From a virus, in IMG/VR virus record IMGVR_UViG_3300042301_002266, positions 1 to 64,000 of that record: 64,000 bases of DNA. One strand, written 5' to 3'. This document shows positions 2,016-13,301 of this stretch, piece by piece (within the stretch, counting starts at the first letter, position 1; each line of letters starts with the position of its first letter). The notes below the pieces were generated by a model. That model saw nothing but the letters and a program-made list of their open reading frames with translations, searched no databases and was not told where the DNA came from. The position numbers were made by a program, and so were the translations under genes.

Positions 2016-3038
2016 ATGGCAGAGAGATTGTTTGTTGTTGATCTTAACCTAAATGGCAATAAAGCCACAAACTTCAGAGTAGAAGATTATACAACCGATC
2101 CTACTTCTGGAAACTTTGCAGGTCGTCTTATCCATAATACAACGGGTACAGATAGACTTAAAATGCACGATGGCACAGAATTTAGAACCTTTGCATATAC
2201 TTCAGAACTAGGAGTAATCAGTCTTACTGGAACTGCAAATGAAATTCAAGTAAGCGGAACTGGTTCAGATCCTTATACAGGAGCAGTAACAATTGGTCTT
2301 CCAGACGATGTAACAATTGGTAGAAATCTTACTGTAACTGGAGACTTGACAGTAAATGGAGATGTAACAACTCTTAATACTGCAACAATGAATGTTGAAG
2401 ACAATATTTTTGTTCTTAACTCAAATGTTACTGGAACACCTTCTACTGATGCAGGTTTTGAAATTGAGCGTGGAACCTATACCAATGCATCCCTATTCTG
2501 GAAAGAAGCTTCCAATAAATGGTATTTAGGTACGCCAGTTGATAATACAGATGCTGTGGTTGAAGCAGAAATTTCTGTTGTAGGTCATATTCACTCTACA
2601 TCAGATATTACAGGTCTTCAAGAATATGTTGAAGATACAGTATCAACAGCATTTACCGATTCTGGAACAATTGATTTTACATACACAGATAATTCAGGTT
2701 CAGCAGGTACCATAAGTGCTGCAGTAATTCTTGCAAGTACAAATCCTTATCTTTCTACAACATCAGGTCTTGCAGTGGATATTTCTGCTCTTGAAACAAA
2801 ACTTACAACTGATGGTTACACAAAAAAGTACACAACTACAATTGGAAATGGAACTCTTCAAACTTTTACAGTAACACATAGCTTAAACACAAGAGCCGTG
2901 ACAGTACAGATTTATGAATCTGCATCACCTTATTCACAAGTAGAGGTAGAAGTTTTACATTCAACTGCTGATACTATTACAATTAACACAAACAGTGTGC
3001 CATCAGCATCCCAGTACACAGTGGTAGTAGTAGGCTAA
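2016..3038 (+). CDS. Virion fibre/decoration protein
   Basis: T/G/S-rich. LTVTGDLTVNG and VEDN..LN..DAGFEIERG fibre motifs; C-terminal THSLNT domain. Confidence 0.6.
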   Translation: MAERLFVVDLNLNGNKATNFRVEDYTTDPTSGNFAGRLIHNTTGTDRLKMHDGTEFRTFAYTSELGVISLTGTANEIQVSGTGSDPYTGAVTIGLPDDVTIGRNLTVTGDLTVNGDVTTLNTATMNVEDNIFVLNSNVTGTPSTDAGFEIERGTYTNASLFWKEASNKWYLGTPVDNTDAVVEAEISVVGHIHSTSDITGLQEYVEDTVSTAFTDSGTIDFTYTDNSGSAGTISAAVILASTNPYLSTTSGLAVDISALETKLTTDGYTKKYTTTIGNGTLQTFTVTHSLNTRAVTVQIYESASPYSQVEVEVLHSTADTITINTNSVPSASQYTVVVVG

Positions 3039-3604: not shown

Positions 3605-3633
3605 TTGACCCCTAACGCTAGTTGATGTACAAT
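3605..3633 (+). promoter_or_regulatory. Sigma70/SigA-type promoter of the RNR gene, back-to-back with the minus-strand promoter at 3593-3601
   Basis: TTGACC-17 nt-TACAAT. Confidence 0.65.
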
Positions 3634-3684
3634 AGTACTTACCCCATATTTGGGAATTTAAAAATAAACGGAGTGAATTTAAAA

Positions 3685-5628
3685 ATGATAGTTTCTTTGC
3701 CAACGGCATACCAACAAGTAATCCATAAGACAAGATATGCACGATGGAGAGAAGAAGATAATCGTAGAGAAAACTGGGATGAAACAGTTGATCGTTATAT
3801 GGACTATGTAACAGATGCAATTAAAAAGCATAACAACTTTGAGCTATCACAGGATATTAAATCACAACTTCGTAATGCTATTTTAGAAACAAAGGTAATG
3901 CCATCAATGCGTGGTCTTATGACAGCAGGACCTGCTCTTGATAGAGATAGTACATGCATTTACAACTGTGCCTACATGCCAGTTGATAGTTTAAGATCAT
4001 TTGATGAGGGTATGTATATCCTAATGTGTGGAACTGGAGTTGGATACTCCGTTGAGTCCCGTTATGTAAATCAACTACCAGAAATTTCTGAGCATTTTGA
4101 AAACACAGATACAACAATTGTTGTAGAAGATTCTAAAGCTGGTTGGGCACGTTCACTAAAAGAACTACTTGCACTTTTGTGGCAAGGTCAAGTTCCATCT
4201 TGGGACATGTCTCAGGTTCGTCCTGCAGGTGCTCGTCTAAAAACATTTGGTGGTCGTGCATCAGGTCCAGATCCACTAGATCGTTTGTTTAAGTTTTCTG
4301 TTTCTCTTATTAAGGGTGCAGCAGGTAGAAAATTAACTCCACTTGAAGCACACGACTTAATGTGTAAGATTGCAGAAGTAGTTGTTGTTGGCGGTGTTCG
4401 CCGTTCAGCGATGATCTCGCTATCAGACTTGGAAGACCGAAACATGGCAGCAGCTAAGTCTGGTTCCTGGTGGGAATACAGCGGTCAAAGAGCACTTGCC
4501 AACAACTCAGCAGTCTATAATACAAAACCAACTATGGAAGTGTTTATGGACGAATGGAAGGCTCTATATGATTCAAAGTCTGGAGAGCGTGGAATCTTTA
4601 GTCGTGAAGCAGCACAAAGAGTTGCATCAAAAAATGGTCGTAGAGATTCTACAGTAGACTTTGGAACCAACCCTTGTTCTGAAATTATCTTAAGACCAAA
4701 TCAGTTCTGTAATCTTACTGAAGTTATTGTTCGTGATACAGACACTCTTGAAGATCTTAAGGCAAAGGTAGAACTAGCTGCTATCCTTGGAACTATTCAG
4801 TCAACATTTACTCGCTTTAAGTACTTGAGAAAGATTTGGCAAAAGAATTCTGAGGAAGAAAGATTATTAGGTCTTTCTCTTACAGGTCAGCTATCTCATC
4901 CAGTTCTTAATGGTTCACAGGGCGTTGATTTACTATCAGCATGGCTAGATGAACTAAGAGAATATTCTGTTGTTATAAATAAAGAATGGTCTGAAAAGAT
5001 TGGTATTAATCAAGCATCAGCAATTACATGTGTTAAGCCATCAGGAACGGTGTCCCAGTTAGTAAATGCTTCATCTGGTATGCATCCATGGCACTCACAA
5101 TATTATGCCCGTACAATTCGTGGAGATATGAAAGATCCAATTACATCTTTCCTAGTTGATATGGGTGTAAAGAATGAGCCAGATGTTATGAAGCCAAATG
5201 ATACTATGGTATTTACATTCCCAATTGCAGCACCAGAAGGTGCAACACTTCGTCAAGATTTAACAGCAGTTCAGCATCTAGATATTTGGCTAACATACCA
5301 ACGTCATTGGGCAGAACACAAGCCTTCTATTACAGTATCTGTAAAAGAAAATGAATGGATGGCTGTAGGTGCATGGGTATTTGAACATATTGATGAAATG
5401 TCAGGAGTATCTTTCTTACCTTATTCAGAGCATACCTATCAACAAGCTCCTTACCAAGAAATTACTAAATCAGAATATGAAGTTCTTCTTTCAGAAACTC
5501 CATCTGATCTTGATTGGAAATGGCTTGAGATCTATGAAACATTTGATGCTACTACAAGCGTACAAGATCTAGCATGTGTTGCTGGAGCTTGCGATATAAG
5601 TGATTTTGGTACCGTTAAAGCTGTATAA
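3685..5628 (+). CDS. nrdJ: Class II (adenosylcobalamin-dependent) ribonucleotide reductase
   Basis: PSMR, YNC, GTGVG, VVVGGVRRSA, catalytic TNPCSEI, VKPSGTVS and C-terminal CVAGAC. No beta subunit nearby. Start moved to ATG 3685, downstream of GGAG. Confidence 0.9.
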   Translation: MIVSLPTAYQQVIHKTRYARWREEDNRRENWDETVDRYMDYVTDAIKKHNNFELSQDIKSQLRNAILETKVMPSMRGLMTAGPALDRDSTCIYNCAYMPVDSLRSFDEGMYILMCGTGVGYSVESRYVNQLPEISEHFENTDTTIVVEDSKAGWARSLKELLALLWQGQVPSWDMSQVRPAGARLKTFGGRASGPDPLDRLFKFSVSLIKGAAGRKLTPLEAHDLMCKIAEVVVVGGVRRSAMISLSDLEDRNMAAAKSGSWWEYSGQRALANNSAVYNTKPTMEVFMDEWKALYDSKSGERGIFSREAAQRVASKNGRRDSTVDFGTNPCSEIILRPNQFCNLTEVIVRDTDTLEDLKAKVELAAILGTIQSTFTRFKYLRKIWQKNSEEERLLGLSLTGQLSHPVLNGSQGVDLLSAWLDELREYSVVINKEWSEKIGINQASAITCVKPSGTVSQLVNASSGMHPWHSQYYARTIRGDMKDPITSFLVDMGVKNEPDVMKPNDTMVFTFPIAAPEGATLRQDLTAVQHLDIWLTYQRHWAEHKPSITVSVKENEWMAVGAWVFEHIDEMSGVSFLPYSEHTYQQAPYQEITKSEYEVLLSETPSDLDWKWLEIYETFDATTSVQDLACVAGACDISDFGTVKAV

Positions 5629-5644: not shown

Positions 5645-8533
5645 ATGTCTTATACTGATTTAATTTTACAAGATTCACCTGTCTCAATTTGGAGTTTATC
5701 TGAGGCAAGTGGCACTGTAGCAAATAATGATGGTTTTTTACTAGGAGATTCATATAACGGAACATATCTAGGTACCAGTGGAGCAAATTCAAAAAGAATT
5801 AAAGTTCCTCTTGTATATGGCGGTGGACAGTGTATAAAATTAGTAGGAAATAATATACCTTCTCTTAGAATACCATCTTTAGATAAAATGTCTTCCGCAA
5901 ATAGACAATACACATCAACCCTAGAGTTTTGGCTTAAAATAACAAACTCTGTAAAAGATGAAACAGTAATTCTTAGAAAACCAAATAGTGCTACTGGTCT
6001 TTATATTAAAGATAACTATTTAATATTTAGAGTTGGAGATCAAGACACAATAGCAGTTTCCTTGCCAGTAGATACTTTCAATAAACCACTTCATATTGCA
6101 ATGACCTATAGCCCAAAAGGTATTAGTCTTTTTGTAAATGGTGTTCAGTCTTCAGCCCCAATATCAAATTTAAGATATTTTACAAAAACCTATAGTTCCG
6201 CTGACGAGTACTTTGATTTTTTTGGAAGTTTATCTTTAGGAATTTATGTAGATAGTATTGCAATTTATAGCTACCCATTTAATCCTACAATAGCAAAAAG
6301 ACATTTTATTTATGGTGTAGGATATGATATTTCTAGATTTGCCATATCAGCAAAAGCTGGAACAATGTATTCAATGCATATGGAAAATACATCTAAGCTT
6401 TACTCTCTGTCCTATAATGATAAGTCATCATGGTCTAATAATTTAGTTATTGAAAATAATACATTACAGATTCAAAAAGACGGGTATCTAACAACCAATA
6501 ATTATTCAACAATAGAGCATGTTACTTTTTCAGATGTTAGTTACGAAACAATGTATGGAACTACTGACGGAGAAATTTCTTTCCCACATGGAACATCTTT
6601 ATATATTTCAGATAAAGTTAATTCATTCCCTAACGGAATGATATCAAAACTTGATTTTACAGGAGCTACCTGGACAACAAAGCAGTTATTGTTTAAAATA
6701 GATTCATTGACAAATTCAGGTTTATCTGTATATGCTGAAAAAATTGGAACAGATTATAAAATTTATTATTCAACAGAATATGTAAATGGAACCAAAAAGG
6801 TTGATACTACGCTTTTATCAACTGATACACAGATAACTGGAAAAGTTTATTTAGGTTTTTATGAATCAAACAATATCCTAAGTCTGTTTTTGTATACACC
6901 TTCAAACCAATATACAGAATCTGACACAAGCCTAGAACTACCTATTATGTCATCATCAATATCATTTGGTGGAGAAAGCATAAGCCCTTTTGCAAATACT
7001 GAAATTCTTCCTTCAACAGAAACAGAAACTAATAGATTTACTGGAAAGCTAAACCTTATTGGTGCCCTAAAAGATACATCATCTATACCACAAAATTTTA
7101 CTGAATTAGAAAACTATGACTACAACTATAAAATATCTCCAAGCAAAGAAAAAAGATTGCTTAGATACACAAAGGGTAAAGCTAAGTTTTATGTTGGAGT
7201 TAATTTTCTAGGAACAACAACAGTTCTTCCACATAGAATAGATTTAGGATATGGAGAGGTTGAAGGAGATAGTTTTGTTAAGGTAGAGGCTACCGTATAT
7301 AATGAGACATCAGAACTTTTAGCATCTCAAGAAATTTTAAATGGAGATCCAATAAAAGGTTTAGTTGGTCAGGCTATCACAGATTATGTTGTTAGATTTG
7401 ATATAACTATGGAGTCAGATGATTATGAGCTATATCCTCCCGTTTTACAATATTTTAATCTTAATGTATTTAACTCAACAAACTCATCTGTTGAAATGAG
7501 ATCAGATATTGGTAGTCAAAATATAACCATCACACCAAAATCTGGAAAAGATTTATATCTGCCAGAAGTTAAGAAAACACCTTCAATGTACTATGGAAAC
7601 ACCACTGGTCTAAAGATTGGTGATCAGTATGGAACAATAAATTATTCAGCAAAAGCCATCGGAACAGAATCAACTGAAGGAATTAGTACAATTATATTTA
7701 CAGCAAAACCAACAACTACATCTCAGTGCAGATTTATTTATTCTAATCCAGTTATAATTAGGCAGACATCAGGCACAGTAGCAATTGCAGGTAGTGGAAT
7801 TACTGGTACGGTTTATGTTAATGGACTAGCAACAACAACTGCAGAAACTAATGAGTGGAATCACTATACTATTGTTTTAGATAATCCAATCCCAATTAAT
7901 ACTCTCACTGGAACACCTATTGAAATTGGAAACTCCTCATCAACAACAGGAACATTCTATATTGATAATTTGTGTTTCTTAGAATCTCAATTAACAGCAT
8001 CTCAAGCCTTAAAGTATTACAATTTATTTTATTCATCTTACTCAGAATCAGTGAAAGATTCTAGTGTTCTTAATATTAATTTTTATGACAAAGAAGTAAG
8101 ACACGAAAATCTAGAATACGAACTTCTTCCAAATCAAAACTTAATAAAAGCTACAGTATCCCTAGCAGCCACAGAAAATTATACCCTTTCTTCTAATACA
8201 ATAAATTATTCTAATGATATAGATCTAATTGAAATTGATAGTGTTAGTGCCCCAGGATTAGCAAGACCAGTTACAGTTTTACTGGCAAATCAAACATCAG
8301 CAGCAGATAGAGGTGTTTATTCAATTGGATTTTCTGATGGAATTGCTACTTTTACAGCTAACACATCACTAGAAGCAGCAGACATAGCAACTGGAGATTT
8401 AATATATGTTCAAAATGGTGATGAAAATGGAAAAGAATTTTTACAAAAACAATCCAACGGAACATATAGTCAAGTATTTATGACAAACAAAATAGTTTCA
8501 TACAAAGAAACAGACTTGGTTAGTTCAGATTAA
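5645..8533 (+). CDS. Large virion protein with LamG/concanavalin-A-like domains
   Basis: ILQDSPVSIWSL, TLEFW, HIAMTY, LFVNG and IDNLCF-type LamG motifs near both ends. Confidence 0.7.
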   Translation: MSYTDLILQDSPVSIWSLSEASGTVANNDGFLLGDSYNGTYLGTSGANSKRIKVPLVYGGGQCIKLVGNNIPSLRIPSLDKMSSANRQYTSTLEFWLKITNSVKDETVILRKPNSATGLYIKDNYLIFRVGDQDTIAVSLPVDTFNKPLHIAMTYSPKGISLFVNGVQSSAPISNLRYFTKTYSSADEYFDFFGSLSLGIYVDSIAIYSYPFNPTIAKRHFIYGVGYDISRFAISAKAGTMYSMHMENTSKLYSLSYNDKSSWSNNLVIENNTLQIQKDGYLTTNNYSTIEHVTFSDVSYETMYGTTDGEISFPHGTSLYISDKVNSFPNGMISKLDFTGATWTTKQLLFKIDSLTNSGLSVYAEKIGTDYKIYYSTEYVNGTKKVDTTLLSTDTQITGKVYLGFYESNNILSLFLYTPSNQYTESDTSLELPIMSSSISFGGESISPFANTEILPSTETETNRFTGKLNLIGALKDTSSIPQNFTELENYDYNYKISPSKEKRLLRYTKGKAKFYVGVNFLGTTTVLPHRIDLGYGEVEGDSFVKVEATVYNETSELLASQEILNGDPIKGLVGQAITDYVVRFDITMESDDYELYPPVLQYFNLNVFNSTNSSVEMRSDIGSQNITITPKSGKDLYLPEVKKTPSMYYGNTTGLKIGDQYGTINYSAKAIGTESTEGISTIIFTAKPTTTSQCRFIYSNPVIIRQTSGTVAIAGSGITGTVYVNGLATTTAETNEWNHYTIVLDNPIPINTLTGTPIEIGNSSSTTGTFYIDNLCFLESQLTASQALKYYNLFYSSYSESVKDSSVLNINFYDKEVRHENLEYELLPNQNLIKATVSLAATENYTLSSNTINYSNDIDLIEIDSVSAPGLARPVTVLLANQTSAADRGVYSIGFSDGIATFTANTSLEAADIATGDLIYVQNGDENGKEFLQKQSNGTYSQVFMTNKIVSYKETDLVSSD

Positions 8534-8582: not shown

Positions 8583-8918
8583 ATGTCAAAACCTAAAAAC
8601 AAAGTACAAGCAGTACAAAGCAATGCAGAATATGGAATTTATGTATGGCAACTGCCAAATGGATCTAACTTTCAAGACGATCAGGGTAATACTCTAAACG
8701 TACCTGCTCGCAAATATGATATTCAAAAGATGAAACAACTTGCAGATGCAGCAGCATACTGGGGCAAACCAGAAGGAAAAGCTGTGTTTATGCCAGGTGT
8801 TGGTAGGTCTTCTGATACTCAGGCTCAAGAAGATATTGATAGAATGGCAGAAGGTCTAACTCCATACGGAGACACAGATAACTGGAGAGAGGTGTTCCAC
8901 AATGCAAGAAATGCATGA
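8583..8918 (+). CDS. Hypothetical protein immediately upstream of portal
   Basis: ORF with phage-typical codon use, leaderless -10 (TGGTATCAT), overlaps the portal start. Confidence 0.7.
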   Translation: MSKPKNKVQAVQSNAEYGIYVWQLPNGSNFQDDQGNTLNVPARKYDIQKMKQLADAAAYWGKPEGKAVFMPGVGRSSDTQAQEDIDRMAEGLTPYGDTDNWREVFHNARNA

Positions 8919-10473
8919 AATTAACGGTAGAGATATCGGAATGGACAGCGTAGCTAAGTCCAACTCTTTAATTGGAAACAATGAAGTGGATGAATTTGCA
9001 AAGAATCCAAATGAACTTATGAAGCTTGCTGGATTAGGTCACAACTTTAAAAGAAATGCTAAAAGAAAGCTTGAAAAAGCAGATCAAAACTCTTTAAATG
9101 GTGATGATTCAGAATCTAAGCAACTTATTCCAGATAAGTACGGCTATGGTCTTTTTGATGTTGTTGAACCACCATATAACTTAATTTCACTTTCTAGAAT
9201 TTATGAAGTATCCGCTGCAAACTTTGCTGCAATTAATGCAAAGGTAGCAAACATTGTTGGTCTAGGTTATAGCTTAGATCCAACCCTTCAAGTTTTACAA
9301 ATGCTTGAAGAAACAACAGACCCAGATCAGCTTGCTAGAAGAAGACGTAAGCTTGATAGAACAAAGCTTGAGATTGAAGAATGGCTAGAGTCAAGAAATG
9401 ATGAGGATACTTTTACCGCAACTCTTGTAAAAGCCTACATTGATAAAGAATCAACTGGAAATGGATACCTAGAAATTGGTCGCAAGGTAACAGGAGAAAT
9501 TGGTTACATTGGTCATATTCCAGCAGCAACTGTTAGAATTCGTAGACTTCGTGATGGTTTTGTTCAAATTGTAAACGGTAAGTCAGTATTCTTTAGAAAT
9601 TTTCAAGATCTATCTCAGCCAAATCCAATCGGTGTAGATGGTCGTCCAAATGAAATCATTCATCTAAAATCATACACTCCAACTAATACTTATTATGGAA
9701 TTCCTCCAATTGTTGCAGCAAAAAATGCAATGGCAGGTACTGAATTTGCATCCAGATTTAACCTTGAATACTTTGAAAACAAAGCAACCCCACGCTACAT
9801 TTTCTGGATCAAGGGAGCAAAGCTTTCAAAAGATGCTGAGGCAAAGTTATTTGAATTCTTCCAGAACAATCTTCGTGGGCAATCACACAGAACTTTAGTT
9901 ATCCCAATTCCTGGTGATGAAAATGGTCAAAAGATTGATGTAAAGATGGAAGCTGTAGAAAACGGAATTCAAGATTCTTCCTTTAATAACTATAGAAAAA
10001 CTAACTTAAGTGAAATCTTGATGGCACATAGAGTACCAATTTCAAAGGTTGGAACAGCCGAAAATATTTCTCTTGCAAATGCTCGTGAGGCAGATAGAAC
10101 CTTTAAGGATCAGGTTTGTCGTCCAGAACAGGATACTTTAGAAAAGTCTGTAAACAGAATTGTTTCAGAAAAAACAGATATGTTTAAGCTTAAGTTTAAT
10201 GAACTTACCCTTACAGATGAAGATACTCAGTCAAAGATTGATGAGCGTTATTTAAGAATGGGAGTCTATTTGCCTAATGAAGTTAGATCAAGAAAGGGCA
10301 TGACAGCACTACCATCTGGAGATGAACCAGTTCAATTAACTGCACAAGGTCAAGCAGAACAAAGAGCTCAGGCTAGTGGAAACAGGCTAAGAGATCAGCA
10401 ACGAGATGCTAATGCTGCAGACAGTGGAACAGGATCTAGAGTACCTCAAGGTGAAGGTAGACAACAAGCATAA
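8902..10473 (+). CDS. Portal protein
   Basis: GNGYLE, EIIHLK...YYGIPP, YFENKATP, ILMAHRVP and PNEVR motifs of HK97/PBSX-type portals. Confidence 0.92.
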   Translation: MQEMHEINGRDIGMDSVAKSNSLIGNNEVDEFAKNPNELMKLAGLGHNFKRNAKRKLEKADQNSLNGDDSESKQLIPDKYGYGLFDVVEPPYNLISLSRIYEVSAANFAAINAKVANIVGLGYSLDPTLQVLQMLEETTDPDQLARRRRKLDRTKLEIEEWLESRNDEDTFTATLVKAYIDKESTGNGYLEIGRKVTGEIGYIGHIPAATVRIRRLRDGFVQIVNGKSVFFRNFQDLSQPNPIGVDGRPNEIIHLKSYTPTNTYYGIPPIVAAKNAMAGTEFASRFNLEYFENKATPRYIFWIKGAKLSKDAEAKLFEFFQNNLRGQSHRTLVIPIPGDENGQKIDVKMEAVENGIQDSSFNNYRKTNLSEILMAHRVPISKVGTAENISLANAREADRTFKDQVCRPEQDTLEKSVNRIVSEKTDMFKLKFNELTLTDEDTQSKIDERYLRMGVYLPNEVRSRKGMTALPSGDEPVQLTAQGQAEQRAQASGNRLRDQQRDANAADSGTGSRVPQGEGRQQA

Positions 10474-10511: not shown

Positions 10512-12224
10512 ATGGTAGATTTACAAAAGGCATCCCTTACTACTAATGGTAATCAAGTTACTCTTACCATGCCTATCTCAAAGGTAGACGTAGAAAAAAG
10601 AATTGTTTCTGGCTTTGCAACCCTTGATAACATTGACCGTCAAGGTGATCGTGTTACAGCAGAAGCTTCACGAAAGGCATTTGAAAATTTCAGAGGAAAT
10701 GTACGCCTTATGCACCAGCCAATTCCAGCAGGTAAAGTTGTAAACTTTCGCACTGAAACATTTTTTGATCCAAACACAAACAAGCAATATAGCGGTGTTT
10801 ATGTAGATACATATGTTTCCAAAGGTGCACAAGAAGTATGGGAAATGGTTCTTGATGGAACCCTTACTGGATTCTCAATTGGTGGAAACGTAAAAGACTC
10901 AGAAAGCGTTCTTGATGGAGAATCAAAGAACAGCGTAAGAATTATCAAAGACTATGATCTAGTAGAACTATCATTAGTTGATTCCCCTGCAAATCACCTA
11001 GCAAATATTTTTTCAATTCAAAAAACAGACAGTGGAGATATCGCTACTGGAATTTTTAACAAGTCAAATATCCAAAATGTATTTTGGTGTGAAGTTGACG
11101 AACTAGCATACGTTGATGAAAATGAATCACACAAGTGTGCTAATTGCGATTCAGATCTAACCTCAATTGGTTGGATTGATGAGGTTTCTAAAGAAGATAT
11201 TGCCAAAGCAGTATTTTCTCTTATTCAAAAATCTAATGATAATGTCCTAACAAATGAAGAAACTCCAAATAAGTACCCAGAACAAAATGAACTAGAAGAT
11301 GAGCTATTAAAAGCAAAATATAAAGTTGGAGATTTTGTTCAATGGAACTCTTCAGGTGGTACCGCAAGAGGAAAGGTTACAAGAGTTGTAACTAATGGTA
11401 CAATAAAGGTACCCAACTCTGATTTCACTATTACTGGTACACAAGAAAATCCAGCAGTAGCTATTAGAGTTTACCAGAAGGATGGAAATTCTTGGAAACC
11501 ATCCGATACCACAGTAGGACATAGAATGAACACACTGAGATCTTGGGCAACAAAGGTTGCTAAATCTTTAGGTGTAACCACAGGTTTGCTACCATCAGAA
11601 GTAGTAAAAATGGCAGTTGACTTAGAATCAGTTGCCTACCAACAAAATGAAGGAGGTGTTGAAGTGGCTGAAAATACAGAGGTCGTAGAGACCAATGAAG
11701 ATATTATCAAGTCTGATGAAGTAGCTGAAGATGTTGTAGTTGATGAAGTTGTTGAAGAATCTGCAGAAATCGCAGAAGAAGCACCAGCAGAAGAAGCTCC
11801 AGTAGCAGAAGCACCAACAGAAGAATCTGTTGAAAAGTCTGATTCAGAAAATGTTGAAGCTACAGTAGCCTCCACCGATAACGGTGAGGTAACTGATATG
11901 GCTAAGGCTCTTGATGAGATTAAAAACTTCATTTCAGAAACAATTTCAACGAATACTGCAACAAATACAAATGCTATCAATGAGGTAGCAACATCTGTTG
12001 CAGAAGTAACAAAGGCTCTTGCAGATAAAAATGAAGAGTTAAACAAAGCTTTGGCTGATGTTAAAAGCACTTTGGAAAATCTAAATTCCAGAGTTGACTC
12101 GGTTGAGTCAGACACAGCCGTAAAGAAGTCTGGAGAATTGGAAAATGCTCCAGAACAGACTACCGTACTACGCAAGTCAGTATGGGGTGGACGCTTCCTC
12201 GGCTCCGCAGAATACCTAAATTAA
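10512..12224 (+). CDS. Prohead (capsid maturation) protease fused to a Zn-ribbon, a Tudor-like (DUF2945/Hva1-like) domain and an acidic scaffold
   Basis: HK97-type protease motifs VRLMH, GFSIGG, ELSLVDSPAN. Insert KVGDFVQWNSSGG...VGHR. E/A-rich coiled-coil C-terminus. Confidence 0.88.
   Translation: MVDLQKASLTTNGNQVTLTMPISKVDVEKRIVSGFATLDNIDRQGDRVTAEASRKAFENFRGNVRLMHQPIPAGKVVNFRTETFFDPNTNKQYSGVYVDTYVSKGAQEVWEMVLDGTLTGFSIGGNVKDSESVLDGESKNSVRIIKDYDLVELSLVDSPANHLANIFSIQKTDSGDIATGIFNKSNIQNVFWCEVDELAYVDENESHKCANCDSDLTSIGWIDEVSKEDIAKAVFSLIQKSNDNVLTNEETPNKYPEQNELEDELLKAKYKVGDFVQWNSSGGTARGKVTRVVTNGTIKVPNSDFTITGTQENPAVAIRVYQKDGNSWKPSDTTVGHRMNTLRSWATKVAKSLGVTTGLLPSEVVKMAVDLESVAYQQNEGGVEVAENTEVVETNEDIIKSDEVAEDVVVDEVVEESAEIAEEAPAEEAPVAEAPTEESVEKSDSENVEATVASTDNGEVTDMAKALDEIKNFISETISTNTATNTNAINEVATSVAEVTKALADKNEELNKALADVKSTLENLNSRVDSVESDTAVKKSGELENAPEQTTVLRKSVWGGRFLGSAEYLN
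11664..12224 (+). CDS. Putative nested scaffolding protein (internal in-frame start)
   Basis: AGGAGGT at 11651-11657, 6 nt before an in-frame GTG that begins the acidic region. Confidence 0.6.
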   Translation: MAENTEVVETNEDIIKSDEVAEDVVVDEVVEESAEIAEEAPAEEAPVAEAPTEESVEKSDSENVEATVASTDNGEVTDMAKALDEIKNFISETISTNTATNTNAINEVATSVAEVTKALADKNEELNKALADVKSTLENLNSRVDSVESDTAVKKSGELENAPEQTTVLRKSVWGGRFLGSAEYLN

Positions 12225-12251
12225 AAAGGAAAAGAAGGTGAAATAAATAAA

Positions 12252-13301
12252 ATGAGTGATATTATCGAAAAGGCTGCAGCAAGTGGTACAGTAATCTCTC
12301 CACTGGAATCCCCAGGTGCAATGACATCTTTTGATGTTAGCACAAACGAGGGTGGTGTACTTAACCCAGAGCAGTCACGTCAGTTTATCGACTATATTTT
12401 TGACGAGATGGTTCTCGCCAATGATGGTCGTAGAGTTGTAATGAGAGCAAATACAATGGAACTTGATAAGGTTCGTGTTGGTTCACGTCTTGTTGCTAAG
12501 GCAACACAGGCTGAGGATACAGGAAGCAATTCAGCTCCAGCGTTTACAAAAATCGAACTTACAACAACGAAGTTCCGTCTAGACTACGAACTTTCAACAG
12601 AATCCCTAGAGGATAACATTGAAGGTGAGCAGCTTGAGGATCACATCGTTCGCTTGATGGCAACTCAGTTCGGAAACGATCTTGAGGACATTGCTATCAA
12701 TGGTCGTCCAGCAACATCAGGAGATGGTTCTTACAATAACACCCTTGCAGGGTTCTATCGTCAGACACTTGATGCAACATATGCAGGAGCACACGAAGCT
12801 GCTGCTGCATCTGCAACAATGACCAACATTTGGGAGTCTACTCCTGAATCAAGCGATGGTTCAACAACGACACTTGGTTTGGACGCTATTGAAGCAATCT
12901 ACAATGCATTGCCTCGTAAGTTCAAGGCTCGCCGTCAGGACCTTAAGTTCTACATGAACAGCAAGCATCTATCAGAATTGCTTTCCGAGTTGAGAAACAT
13001 CGGAACAGTTCCAGATATGGTTGCTACCCGTGTAATCGATGGTGTAATTCCACAGGTTGGTGGATCCGCAGGTGCACAATACCTGATCTTCGGACTACCA
13101 GTTGTAGAAGTACCTTTGTATCCAGACAACTATGTTGATCTAACTCTACCAAGCAACAGAATCTGGGGCTTCCAGCGTGATGTAACCGTACATCGTGAAT
13201 TCAAGCCAAAGAAGGACACAGTAGAGTACACAGTATACGTCCGTATGGGTGTAGCAGTAGAAGAAAAGTCAGCGATTGCATACGCAACTCGTGCCAGCTA
13301 A
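12252..13301 (+). CDS. Major capsid protein (HK97 fold)
   Basis: GGVLNPEQ..QFID, ESLEDNIEG and FGNDLEDIAING motifs; biased codon use; position after the protease. Confidence 0.92.
   Translation: MSDIIEKAAASGTVISPLESPGAMTSFDVSTNEGGVLNPEQSRQFIDYIFDEMVLANDGRRVVMRANTMELDKVRVGSRLVAKATQAEDTGSNSAPAFTKIELTTTKFRLDYELSTESLEDNIEGEQLEDHIVRLMATQFGNDLEDIAINGRPATSGDGSYNNTLAGFYRQTLDATYAGAHEAAAASATMTNIWESTPESSDGSTTTLGLDAIEAIYNALPRKFKARRQDLKFYMNSKHLSELLSELRNIGTVPDMVATRVIDGVIPQVGGSAGAQYLIFGLPVVEVPLYPDNYVDLTLPSNRIWGFQRDVTVHREFKPKKDTVEYTVYVRMGVAVEEKSAIAYATRAS

Follow-up and report, generated by a model that had tools for sequence, protein, structure and literature searches.

A phage head protease fused to a scaffold carries an excess of hydrophobic-x-Lys-[Ala/Ser] motifs and a slot for optional domains

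In phages lambda (C/Nu3), P2 (gpO) and Mu (I/Z), and in herpesviruses (UL26/UL26.5), an N-terminal protease and a C-terminal scaffold are encoded in one frame, and self-cleavage frees the scaffold from the shell. We know of no passenger domain in any of these fusions. Other proteins do enter the head: the internal proteins of phage T4 (IPI-III and Alt) are loaded into it, and some of them are trimmed by the prohead protease. Fusions with a MuF domain have been proposed as effector carriers (Iyer et al. 2017, PMC5512222). The head proteases HK97 gp4 and T5 pb11, both of the S78 family, cleave after lysine (PMC13517437), and the scaffold domain of HK97 is 102 residues long (PMC12749128). Lys-specific cleavage by S78 enzymes and the fusion of protease to scaffold are already known. 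Here we analyze the protease-scaffold protein encoded by an open reading frame (ORF) at positions 10512-12224 of a 64,000-nucleotide stretch from IMG/VR virus record IMGVR_UViG_3300042301_002266 (positions 1 to 64,000; hereafter the window), a segment of a tailed-phage genome with a GC content of about 36%. A sequence-only reading of this stretch had proposed that a lysine motif recurring in the head proteins marks maturation cleavage sites, and that the protease gene loads passenger domains, a zinc ribbon and a Tudor-like barrel, into the head and frees them there.

The ORF encodes a net acidic protein of 570 residues, and on balance we take it to be a polyprotein in which an S78/XkdF-type protease, together with its fixed zinc module, is followed by a slot for an optional insert, then by an acidic spacer and last by a helical scaffold with a capsid-binding tail. 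We scored the motif [ILVM]-x-K-[AS], with the expectation drawn from each protein's own composition. The protease-scaffold protein has 12 sites against 1.42 expected, and all 12 tetrapeptides that had been listed for it are present at their coordinates. None of 40,000 shuffles (20,000 of the whole protein and 20,000 segment-wise) reached 12, the maximum being 7-8, and the objection that the motif follows from background residue frequencies therefore fails. The portal has four sites (0.98 expected) and the capsid protein two (0.53 expected). The IEKA of the capsid protein and the VAKS and LEKA of the portal are all where they had been placed, and three sites beyond the earlier list were found: VAKA at residue 81 of the capsid protein, and LVKA and LEKS at residues 175 and 413 of the portal. 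Comparison of head with non-head genes, suggested along with the original proposal, shows no excess outside the head genes: the pooled remaining 66 ORFs of the window are at expectation (42 sites against about 44). The motif is non-random and its excess is confined to the head genes. Within the protease-scaffold protein, none of the 19 lysines in the protease plus zinc module (residues 9-225) and the Tudor barrel (residues 269-348) stands in a motif, against 12 of the 19 elsewhere. In an AlphaFold model built with a 70-sequence alignment, the sites lie mostly in disordered linkers, at helix ends and in low-confidence scaffold helices. Judged from the sequence, the motif very probably marks self-cleavage sites.

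The motif is also enriched in other scaffolds that an S78 or XkdF-type protease serves. At its maturation site the HK97 capsid protein reads T-F-N-K103|S104, and F-N-K|S matches the lysine motif; the established position of the cut is K103|S104, in agreement with the 102-residue scaffold domain. HK97 gp4 and T5 pb11 belong by Pfam to the same protease family as the protein studied here, and the delta domains that are degraded in the two phages show a like excess of motif sites. The delta domain of HK97 has three sites against 0.43 expected and the mature part none. For T5, in which the cut presumably follows residue 159, the delta domain (residues 1-159) has four sites against 0.59 expected, and the mature part none against 1.0. 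The scaffolds of phages that lack a protease, P22 gp8, T7 gp9 and SPP1 gp11, have one site each against 0.3-0.8 expected. In HK97 and T5 the scaffold is the delta domain of the capsid protein, whereas here it is fused to the protease; moreover, gp4 (225 residues) and pb11 (210 residues) are too short for the zinc module and the insert slot. The herpesvirus enzymes belong to another protease family and cut at Ala|Ser rather than Lys sites.

All head genes and motif sites of the window described below are on the plus strand. The protease-scaffold gene matches PF04586 (31.5 bits, cut-off 21), PF14550 (26.2 bits, cut-off 24) and phrog_9427, head maturation protease (E-value 2e-116). Its first motif site, LQKA (10521-10532), with a predicted cut after K6, is conserved: in 54 distant representatives K6 is kept in 94%, P3 is hydrophobic in 94% and P1' is A, S, G or T in 98%. 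The protease domain follows (residues 8-160, 10533-10991), modeled with a predicted local distance difference test score (pLDDT) of 80-95 and free of motif sites. H68, S122 and E152 do not vary among 70 sequences, the most distant of them at about 38% identity, and H68 and S122 are, by analogy, the predicted catalytic His and Ser of an S78/XkdF-type protease. Foldseek against the PDB pairs this domain with T4 gp21 (5jbl) at probability 1.0, with a weak E-value of 6.5e-3 and a template modeling score of 0.47-0.49 on the target. A disordered loop (residues 161-184), also without motif sites, leads to the zinc-ribbon-like module (residues 187-223, 11070-11180; pLDDT about 87). It is a small beta module of the pattern C-x2-[D/H/C]...C-x2-C, once again motif-free, with knuckles C193-x2-D196 and C209-x2-C212; the predicted fourth ligand differs between homologues, being D, H or C, and a full CxxC in the first knuckle occurs in one homologue. 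Each of C193, C209 and C212 is kept in at least 90% of the 70 sequences, and the module is found in essentially every member of the family, including minimal forms of 400 residues. The suggestion that this module is a passenger is not borne out: it is part of the constant core, no motif site separates it from the protease, and it would stay with the protease. The helix after it (residues 227-242, 11190-11237) carries IAKA (11199-11210) and IQKS (11223-11234); at least 90% of close homologues keep K232 and likewise A233.

Next comes the insert. A disordered linker (residues 245-267) ends in LLKA (11304-11315; predicted cut after K267), and the barrel that follows is closed by VAKS (11556-11567; predicted cut after K351). 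The predicted released fragment (residues 268-351, 11313-11564) is an Hva1-type Tudor/SH3-like barrel of 84 residues, about 9 kDa and net charge +8. The bracketing of the barrel by these two sites, with no motif site within it, is as had been described, and the Tudor assignment stands as well: PF11160 matches residues 273-319 (30.3 bits, cut-off 24.1) and is found in diverged homologues too. The barrel has five strands between residues 275 and 338, with a pLDDT of about 95 in the full AlphaFold model and 81-90 in a model of the domain only. The top rows of a VIA fold search are Tudor domains (Z 7.0-7.4, with PHF19 at 7.4 and SMN at 7.2), and Hva1 (4p5n) scores Z 6.2 over 62 aligned residues at 26% identity; values below 8 are weak alone, and here agree with the Pfam match. 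For the Tudor segment Foldseek against the PDB gave weak SH3-like rows only (E-value about 0.04), the PHROGs gave no family for the segment alone and the ESM Atlas gave no usable match. Hva1 (CNAG_02591, PDB 4p5n) is a fungal protein that stands by itself and has been tied to metabolism and virulence (PMC5008624); the match is one of Pfam family and fold, and no function carries over to a phage head protein. In the relatives the net charge of the Tudor domain averages +6.6 (range -1 to +12), against -20 to -53 for the whole proteins.

The flanking lysines are conserved along with the barrel. In 26 Tudor-bearing homologues (40-70% identity) the upstream Lys is invariant, with an aliphatic P3 in 23 and A, S or G at P1' in 19. 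K351 is invariant in 27 close homologues; among the 26 diverged ones the downstream Lys is nearly invariant, and a Lys with a hydrophobic P3 recurs there in most. In the literature searched we found no paper that links a Tudor domain meaningfully to prohead proteases, and the cyanophage CL131 paper has nothing on the protease-scaffold protein.

Homologues at an E-value of 1e-3 or better number 3,023, and most of 150 representatives at 50% identity or less, on which the family statistics rest, are 400-450 residues long and have no insert. Longer relatives carry one or more modules between the post-zinc helix and a conserved EGGVE box: the Tudor domain, DUF5824 (PF19141), a module of about 60 residues with Cys and His, a second SH3-like barrel, or a P-Y-G-D-V...R-Y-P-I module. 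Swappable inserts at one and the same place, which the sequence-only reading had named as a check, are thus found in homologous proteases. A viral structure library likewise holds phage proteins of 500-900 residues with the barrel, including those of Salinibacter and Nodularia phages, some of which are named XkdF, prohead protease or serine protease. The module of about 60 residues, H-P-x-C-x-G...G-x-L-x-x-C...A-E-A-x-A-A-V-x-A-H, stands directly before the Tudor domain in homologues P0028, P0030, P0046, P0089, P0146 and P0147 (alignment A1, columns 320-380). Across the 150 representatives 539 motif sites stand in the scaffold part, where 91 are expected, and 129 in the protease part, where the expectation is 60. 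The lysines of the scaffold part have a 2.3- to 2.9-fold excess of I, M and L at P3, and for S and M the excess at P1' is about 2.6-fold; aliphatic enrichment at the P3 position is marked around K and weak or absent around E, D and R. The most conserved sites are K6, K465 and K539-S540.

Two cultured phages carry the Tudor domain inside head-assembly proteins, Limnohabitans phage DC31 in gp128 (56% identity) and Roseobacter phage CRP-811 in gp45 (47% identity). DC31 gp128 is a separate scaffold of 405 residues in which the Tudor domain is flanked by LQK|A and VQK|S and which has 12 motif sites against 1.9 expected; scaffold and protease are in separate genes there, unlike the fusion in the window. 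CRP-811 gp45 is an 816-residue fusion in the order N-terminal domain, Tudor, S78 protease, scaffold and HK97-fold capsid protein; its Tudor domain looks acidic and has no flanking motif. As regards annotation, DC31 gp129 and gp128 (locus L085, 1329-3340) are entered as hypothetical, although gp129 looks like an XkdF-type protease and gp128 like a motif-rich Tudor scaffold, and CRP-811 gp45 (locus L084, 3075-5525) is entered merely as 'major capsid protein' despite the fusion. The two phages also have an N-terminal domain in common, A-R-A-R-D-I...R-M...F-F-S-R-H, which is found in DC31 gp129 and in CRP-811 gp45.

The remainder of the protease-scaffold protein consists of spacer, scaffold and tail. 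The spacer (residues 356-460, 11577-11891) is disordered (pLDDT 32-45) and strongly acidic, with a net charge of -25 over residues 386-460, and carries IIKS (11703-11714) and VEKS (11829-11840). In 27 close homologues an h-x-K-S-D motif (h, hydrophobic) recurs at shifting positions of this hypervariable spacer, and it thus behaves as a short linear signal and not as the inherited sequence of a fold. The helical scaffold (residues 460-540, 11889-12131), modeled as helices 460-481, 485-502 and 509-540, holds MAKA (11898-11909), VTKA (12006-12017), LNKA (12039-12050) and VKKS (12120-12131); K465 is at least 90% conserved in the 70 sequences and K539 and S540 are invariant. The disordered C-terminal tail (residues 540-570, 12129-12221) contains LRKS (12168-12179) and the ending W-G-G-x-F-L-G (12183-12203; here W-G-G-R-F-L-G), which is present across the 150 representatives, with W558, G560 and F562 at least 90% conserved in the 70 sequences. 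By analogy with the C-terminus of HK97 gp4, the tail is likely a capsid-binding anchor.

The surroundings of the gene agree with its being a protease-scaffold fusion. The head genes run in the order portal (8902-10473), protease-scaffold (10512-12224) and major capsid protein (12252-13301), which places the protease between portal and capsid genes as in the S78/XkdF-type arrangement. The ORF list, Pfam and PHROG matches of the window reveal no separate scaffold gene, and no ORF intervenes between the three genes; a helical C-terminal scaffold with a conserved tail is present on the protease, and the capsid protein lacks a delta domain. Lambda Nu3 and UL26.5 have nested scaffold-only starts, whereas we saw no conserved in-frame start for a scaffold-only product here: the internal M367 and M463 vary among homologues, which disfavors a nested start, a weak negative in that ribosome sites were not analyzed.

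The capsid protein (349 residues, HK97 fold; PF05065; phrog_1623 at an E-value of 3e-71) has its fold beginning at about residues 31-34. Its candidate site IEKA (12264-12275) lies in an N-terminal motif kept in relatives: in each of the 26 unique capsid-protein N-termini an h-x-K-[A/V/S] occurs by residue 14, and a hypervariable linker comes after it. The second site, VAKA (12492-12503), lies in the presumed E-loop region and is probably not a cleavage site. The start of the protein, M-S-D/N-x-h-h-x-K-A/V (12252-12290), resembles the starts of the delta domains of HK97 gp5 and T5 pb8 (locus L082, 1529-1570, and locus L083, 14950-14985, minus strand). From this resemblance, the capsid N-terminus may be what is left of a delta-domain start; alternatively, it may be a docking or cleavage signal that these proteins have in common. 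The portal (523 residues; PF04860 at an E-value of 3e-34) has its candidate sites VAKS (8950-8961) and LEKA (9070-9081) near the N-terminus, and LVKA (9424-9435) and LEKS (10138-10149) within the fold. LEKA comes after a conserved NF[KR][KR] box, and of 46 unique full-length portals from relatives 42 have this box followed by h-x-K-[A/S] near residue 60. Past the Pfam domain, the portal ends (10330-10470) in a low-complexity tail with an abundance of Q, R, G and A.

Our preferred explanation, which we think probable, is a self-dismantling protease-scaffold with an accessory insert slot, the motif being the preferred predicted site of the protease. The protein would assemble together with the portal and with the HK97-fold capsid protein, which has no delta domain, and the protease, concentrated in the procapsid, would cut after Lys at hydrophobic-x-K|[A/S] in linkers and in helices that are exposed. 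The tail, as the likely anchor of the scaffold on the shell, would be detached by cuts at K539 and K555, and the acidic and helical parts would become peptides of 1-5 kDa able to exit. The capsid protein would lose seven residues and the portal about 59, and cuts at K267 and K351 would release the Tudor domain, 84 residues and usually basic. Computed cutting after every motif Lys gives a 25-kDa protease plus zinc piece, a 9-kDa Tudor piece (+8) and acidic peptides of 1-5 kDa.

As to the fate of the Tudor domain, we weakly favor the view that it stays alongside the DNA as a small protein inside the head, which we consider somewhat more likely than its loss. In favor of cargo, the inserts are dispensable and varied, and the Tudor domain is usually basic and a folded unit of 9 kDa. 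A bolder proposal is that the slot is a natural capsid-loading site, with inserts present at scaffold copy number (roughly a hundred copies or more in each head), excised at Lys and retained with the DNA; on reaching the host they would act early as accessory factors, for instance in DNA protection or counter-defense. This we hold to be doubtful. The T4 internal proteins and Alt, the MuF effectors and the phage polyvalent proteins are alike in concept, being loaded via a head-assembly handle. Here the handle would be the protease-scaffold itself, so that loading would be at scaffold copy number, and the cargo would be a small non-enzymatic barrel, for which packaging and injection are only proposed.

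Several points weigh against the self-cleavage and cargo readings. IAKA and IQKS sit in a confidently predicted helix (residues 227-242), and MAKAL, VTKAL and LNKAL match the helical pattern h-x-K-x-h. A cut after K6 would take off only six residues, and that site could instead be structural. Residue 159 of T5, the final site, is the Lys of H-L-K|A, which breaks the P3 rule and makes the motif at best a preference, and P1' across the family favors S and M over A. The net charge of the Tudor domain is -1 to +4 in one clade, and the domain is acidic by inspection in CRP-811; a Tudor domain that is always basic is ruled out, and these versions count against a uniform or general DNA-binding role. 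Lastly, the literature searched yielded no virion proteomics for the protease-scaffold family.

A possible though not probable alternative leaves the cuts in place and denies the cargo: the Tudor domain and other inserts would act only in assembly, through scaffold-scaffold, scaffold-portal or size-setting contacts, and be discarded with the scaffold. The occurrence of the Tudor domain in head-assembly proteins of three architectures (protease-scaffold fusion, separate scaffold and protease-scaffold-capsid fusion) is in keeping with such a role, as are its neutral and acidic-looking versions. However, most members of the family, at 400-450 residues, assemble insert-free, and the slot holds unrelated modules by lineage, a pattern that suits accessory functions better than parts of the assembly core. 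In addition, a folded barrel of 9 kDa would be less apt than short peptides to exit through capsid pores.

It is quite unlikely that the motif is no cleavage signal at all but a short binding or structural motif common to head proteins, such as a docking site for the shell or a helix cap. The N-terminal M-x-x-h-x-K that the protease, the capsid protein and the HK97 and T5 delta domains have in common could mean a common binding role, and several sites do lie in predicted helices. Against this, the motif has the very form of the K103|S104 maturation site of HK97, is enriched in the degraded parts of the HK97 and T5 proteins and depleted in the mature ones, stays at background in the protease-less scaffolds of P22, T7 and SPP1, and recurs in disordered, hypervariable acidic spacers that have no fold. 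Barely credible, finally, is that the motif count is a by-product of composition or of coiled coils in a helical scaffold rich in Lys, Ala, Ser and aliphatics: scaffolds do contain much K, A, L and E, and L is enriched at +2 of K as in amphipathic helices, but segment-wise shuffles that keep local composition never exceeded eight sites, I, L and M show no comparable enrichment at -2 of E, D or R, and the P22, T7 and SPP1 scaffolds rule such an artefact out as well.

Elsewhere in the window, the ribonucleotide reductase gene (3622-5628) and the head module have between them a 962-residue ORF (5645-8533), for which the PHROGs gave no match at an E-value of 1e-5 or better. Upstream of the ribonucleotide reductase gene, and apart from the head module, is a 340-residue ORF (2016-3038) whose C-terminal third matches head-decoration PHROGs (phrog_2647). 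Among named phages, the nearest relatives of the protease-scaffold protein belong to Stanwilliamsviridae that infect Streptomyces; they share about 51% identity with it, over residues 4-260 only, and closer relatives, thousands of them, are found in metagenomes.

A natural insert slot with conserved flanking sites in a protease-scaffold is not described in the literature searched. Encapsulins load cargo by a like principle, and engineers have imitated it with P22 scaffold and HK97 protease-tail fusions. Since DC31 and CRP-811 are cultured and carry the Tudor domain, they make the idea open to direct experiment. Should the predicted cuts be made, a single short rule would read maturation maps from sequence for thousands of uncultured phages; and if the slot works as proposed, natural phages would be using the protease-scaffold as a loading handle for optional domains.

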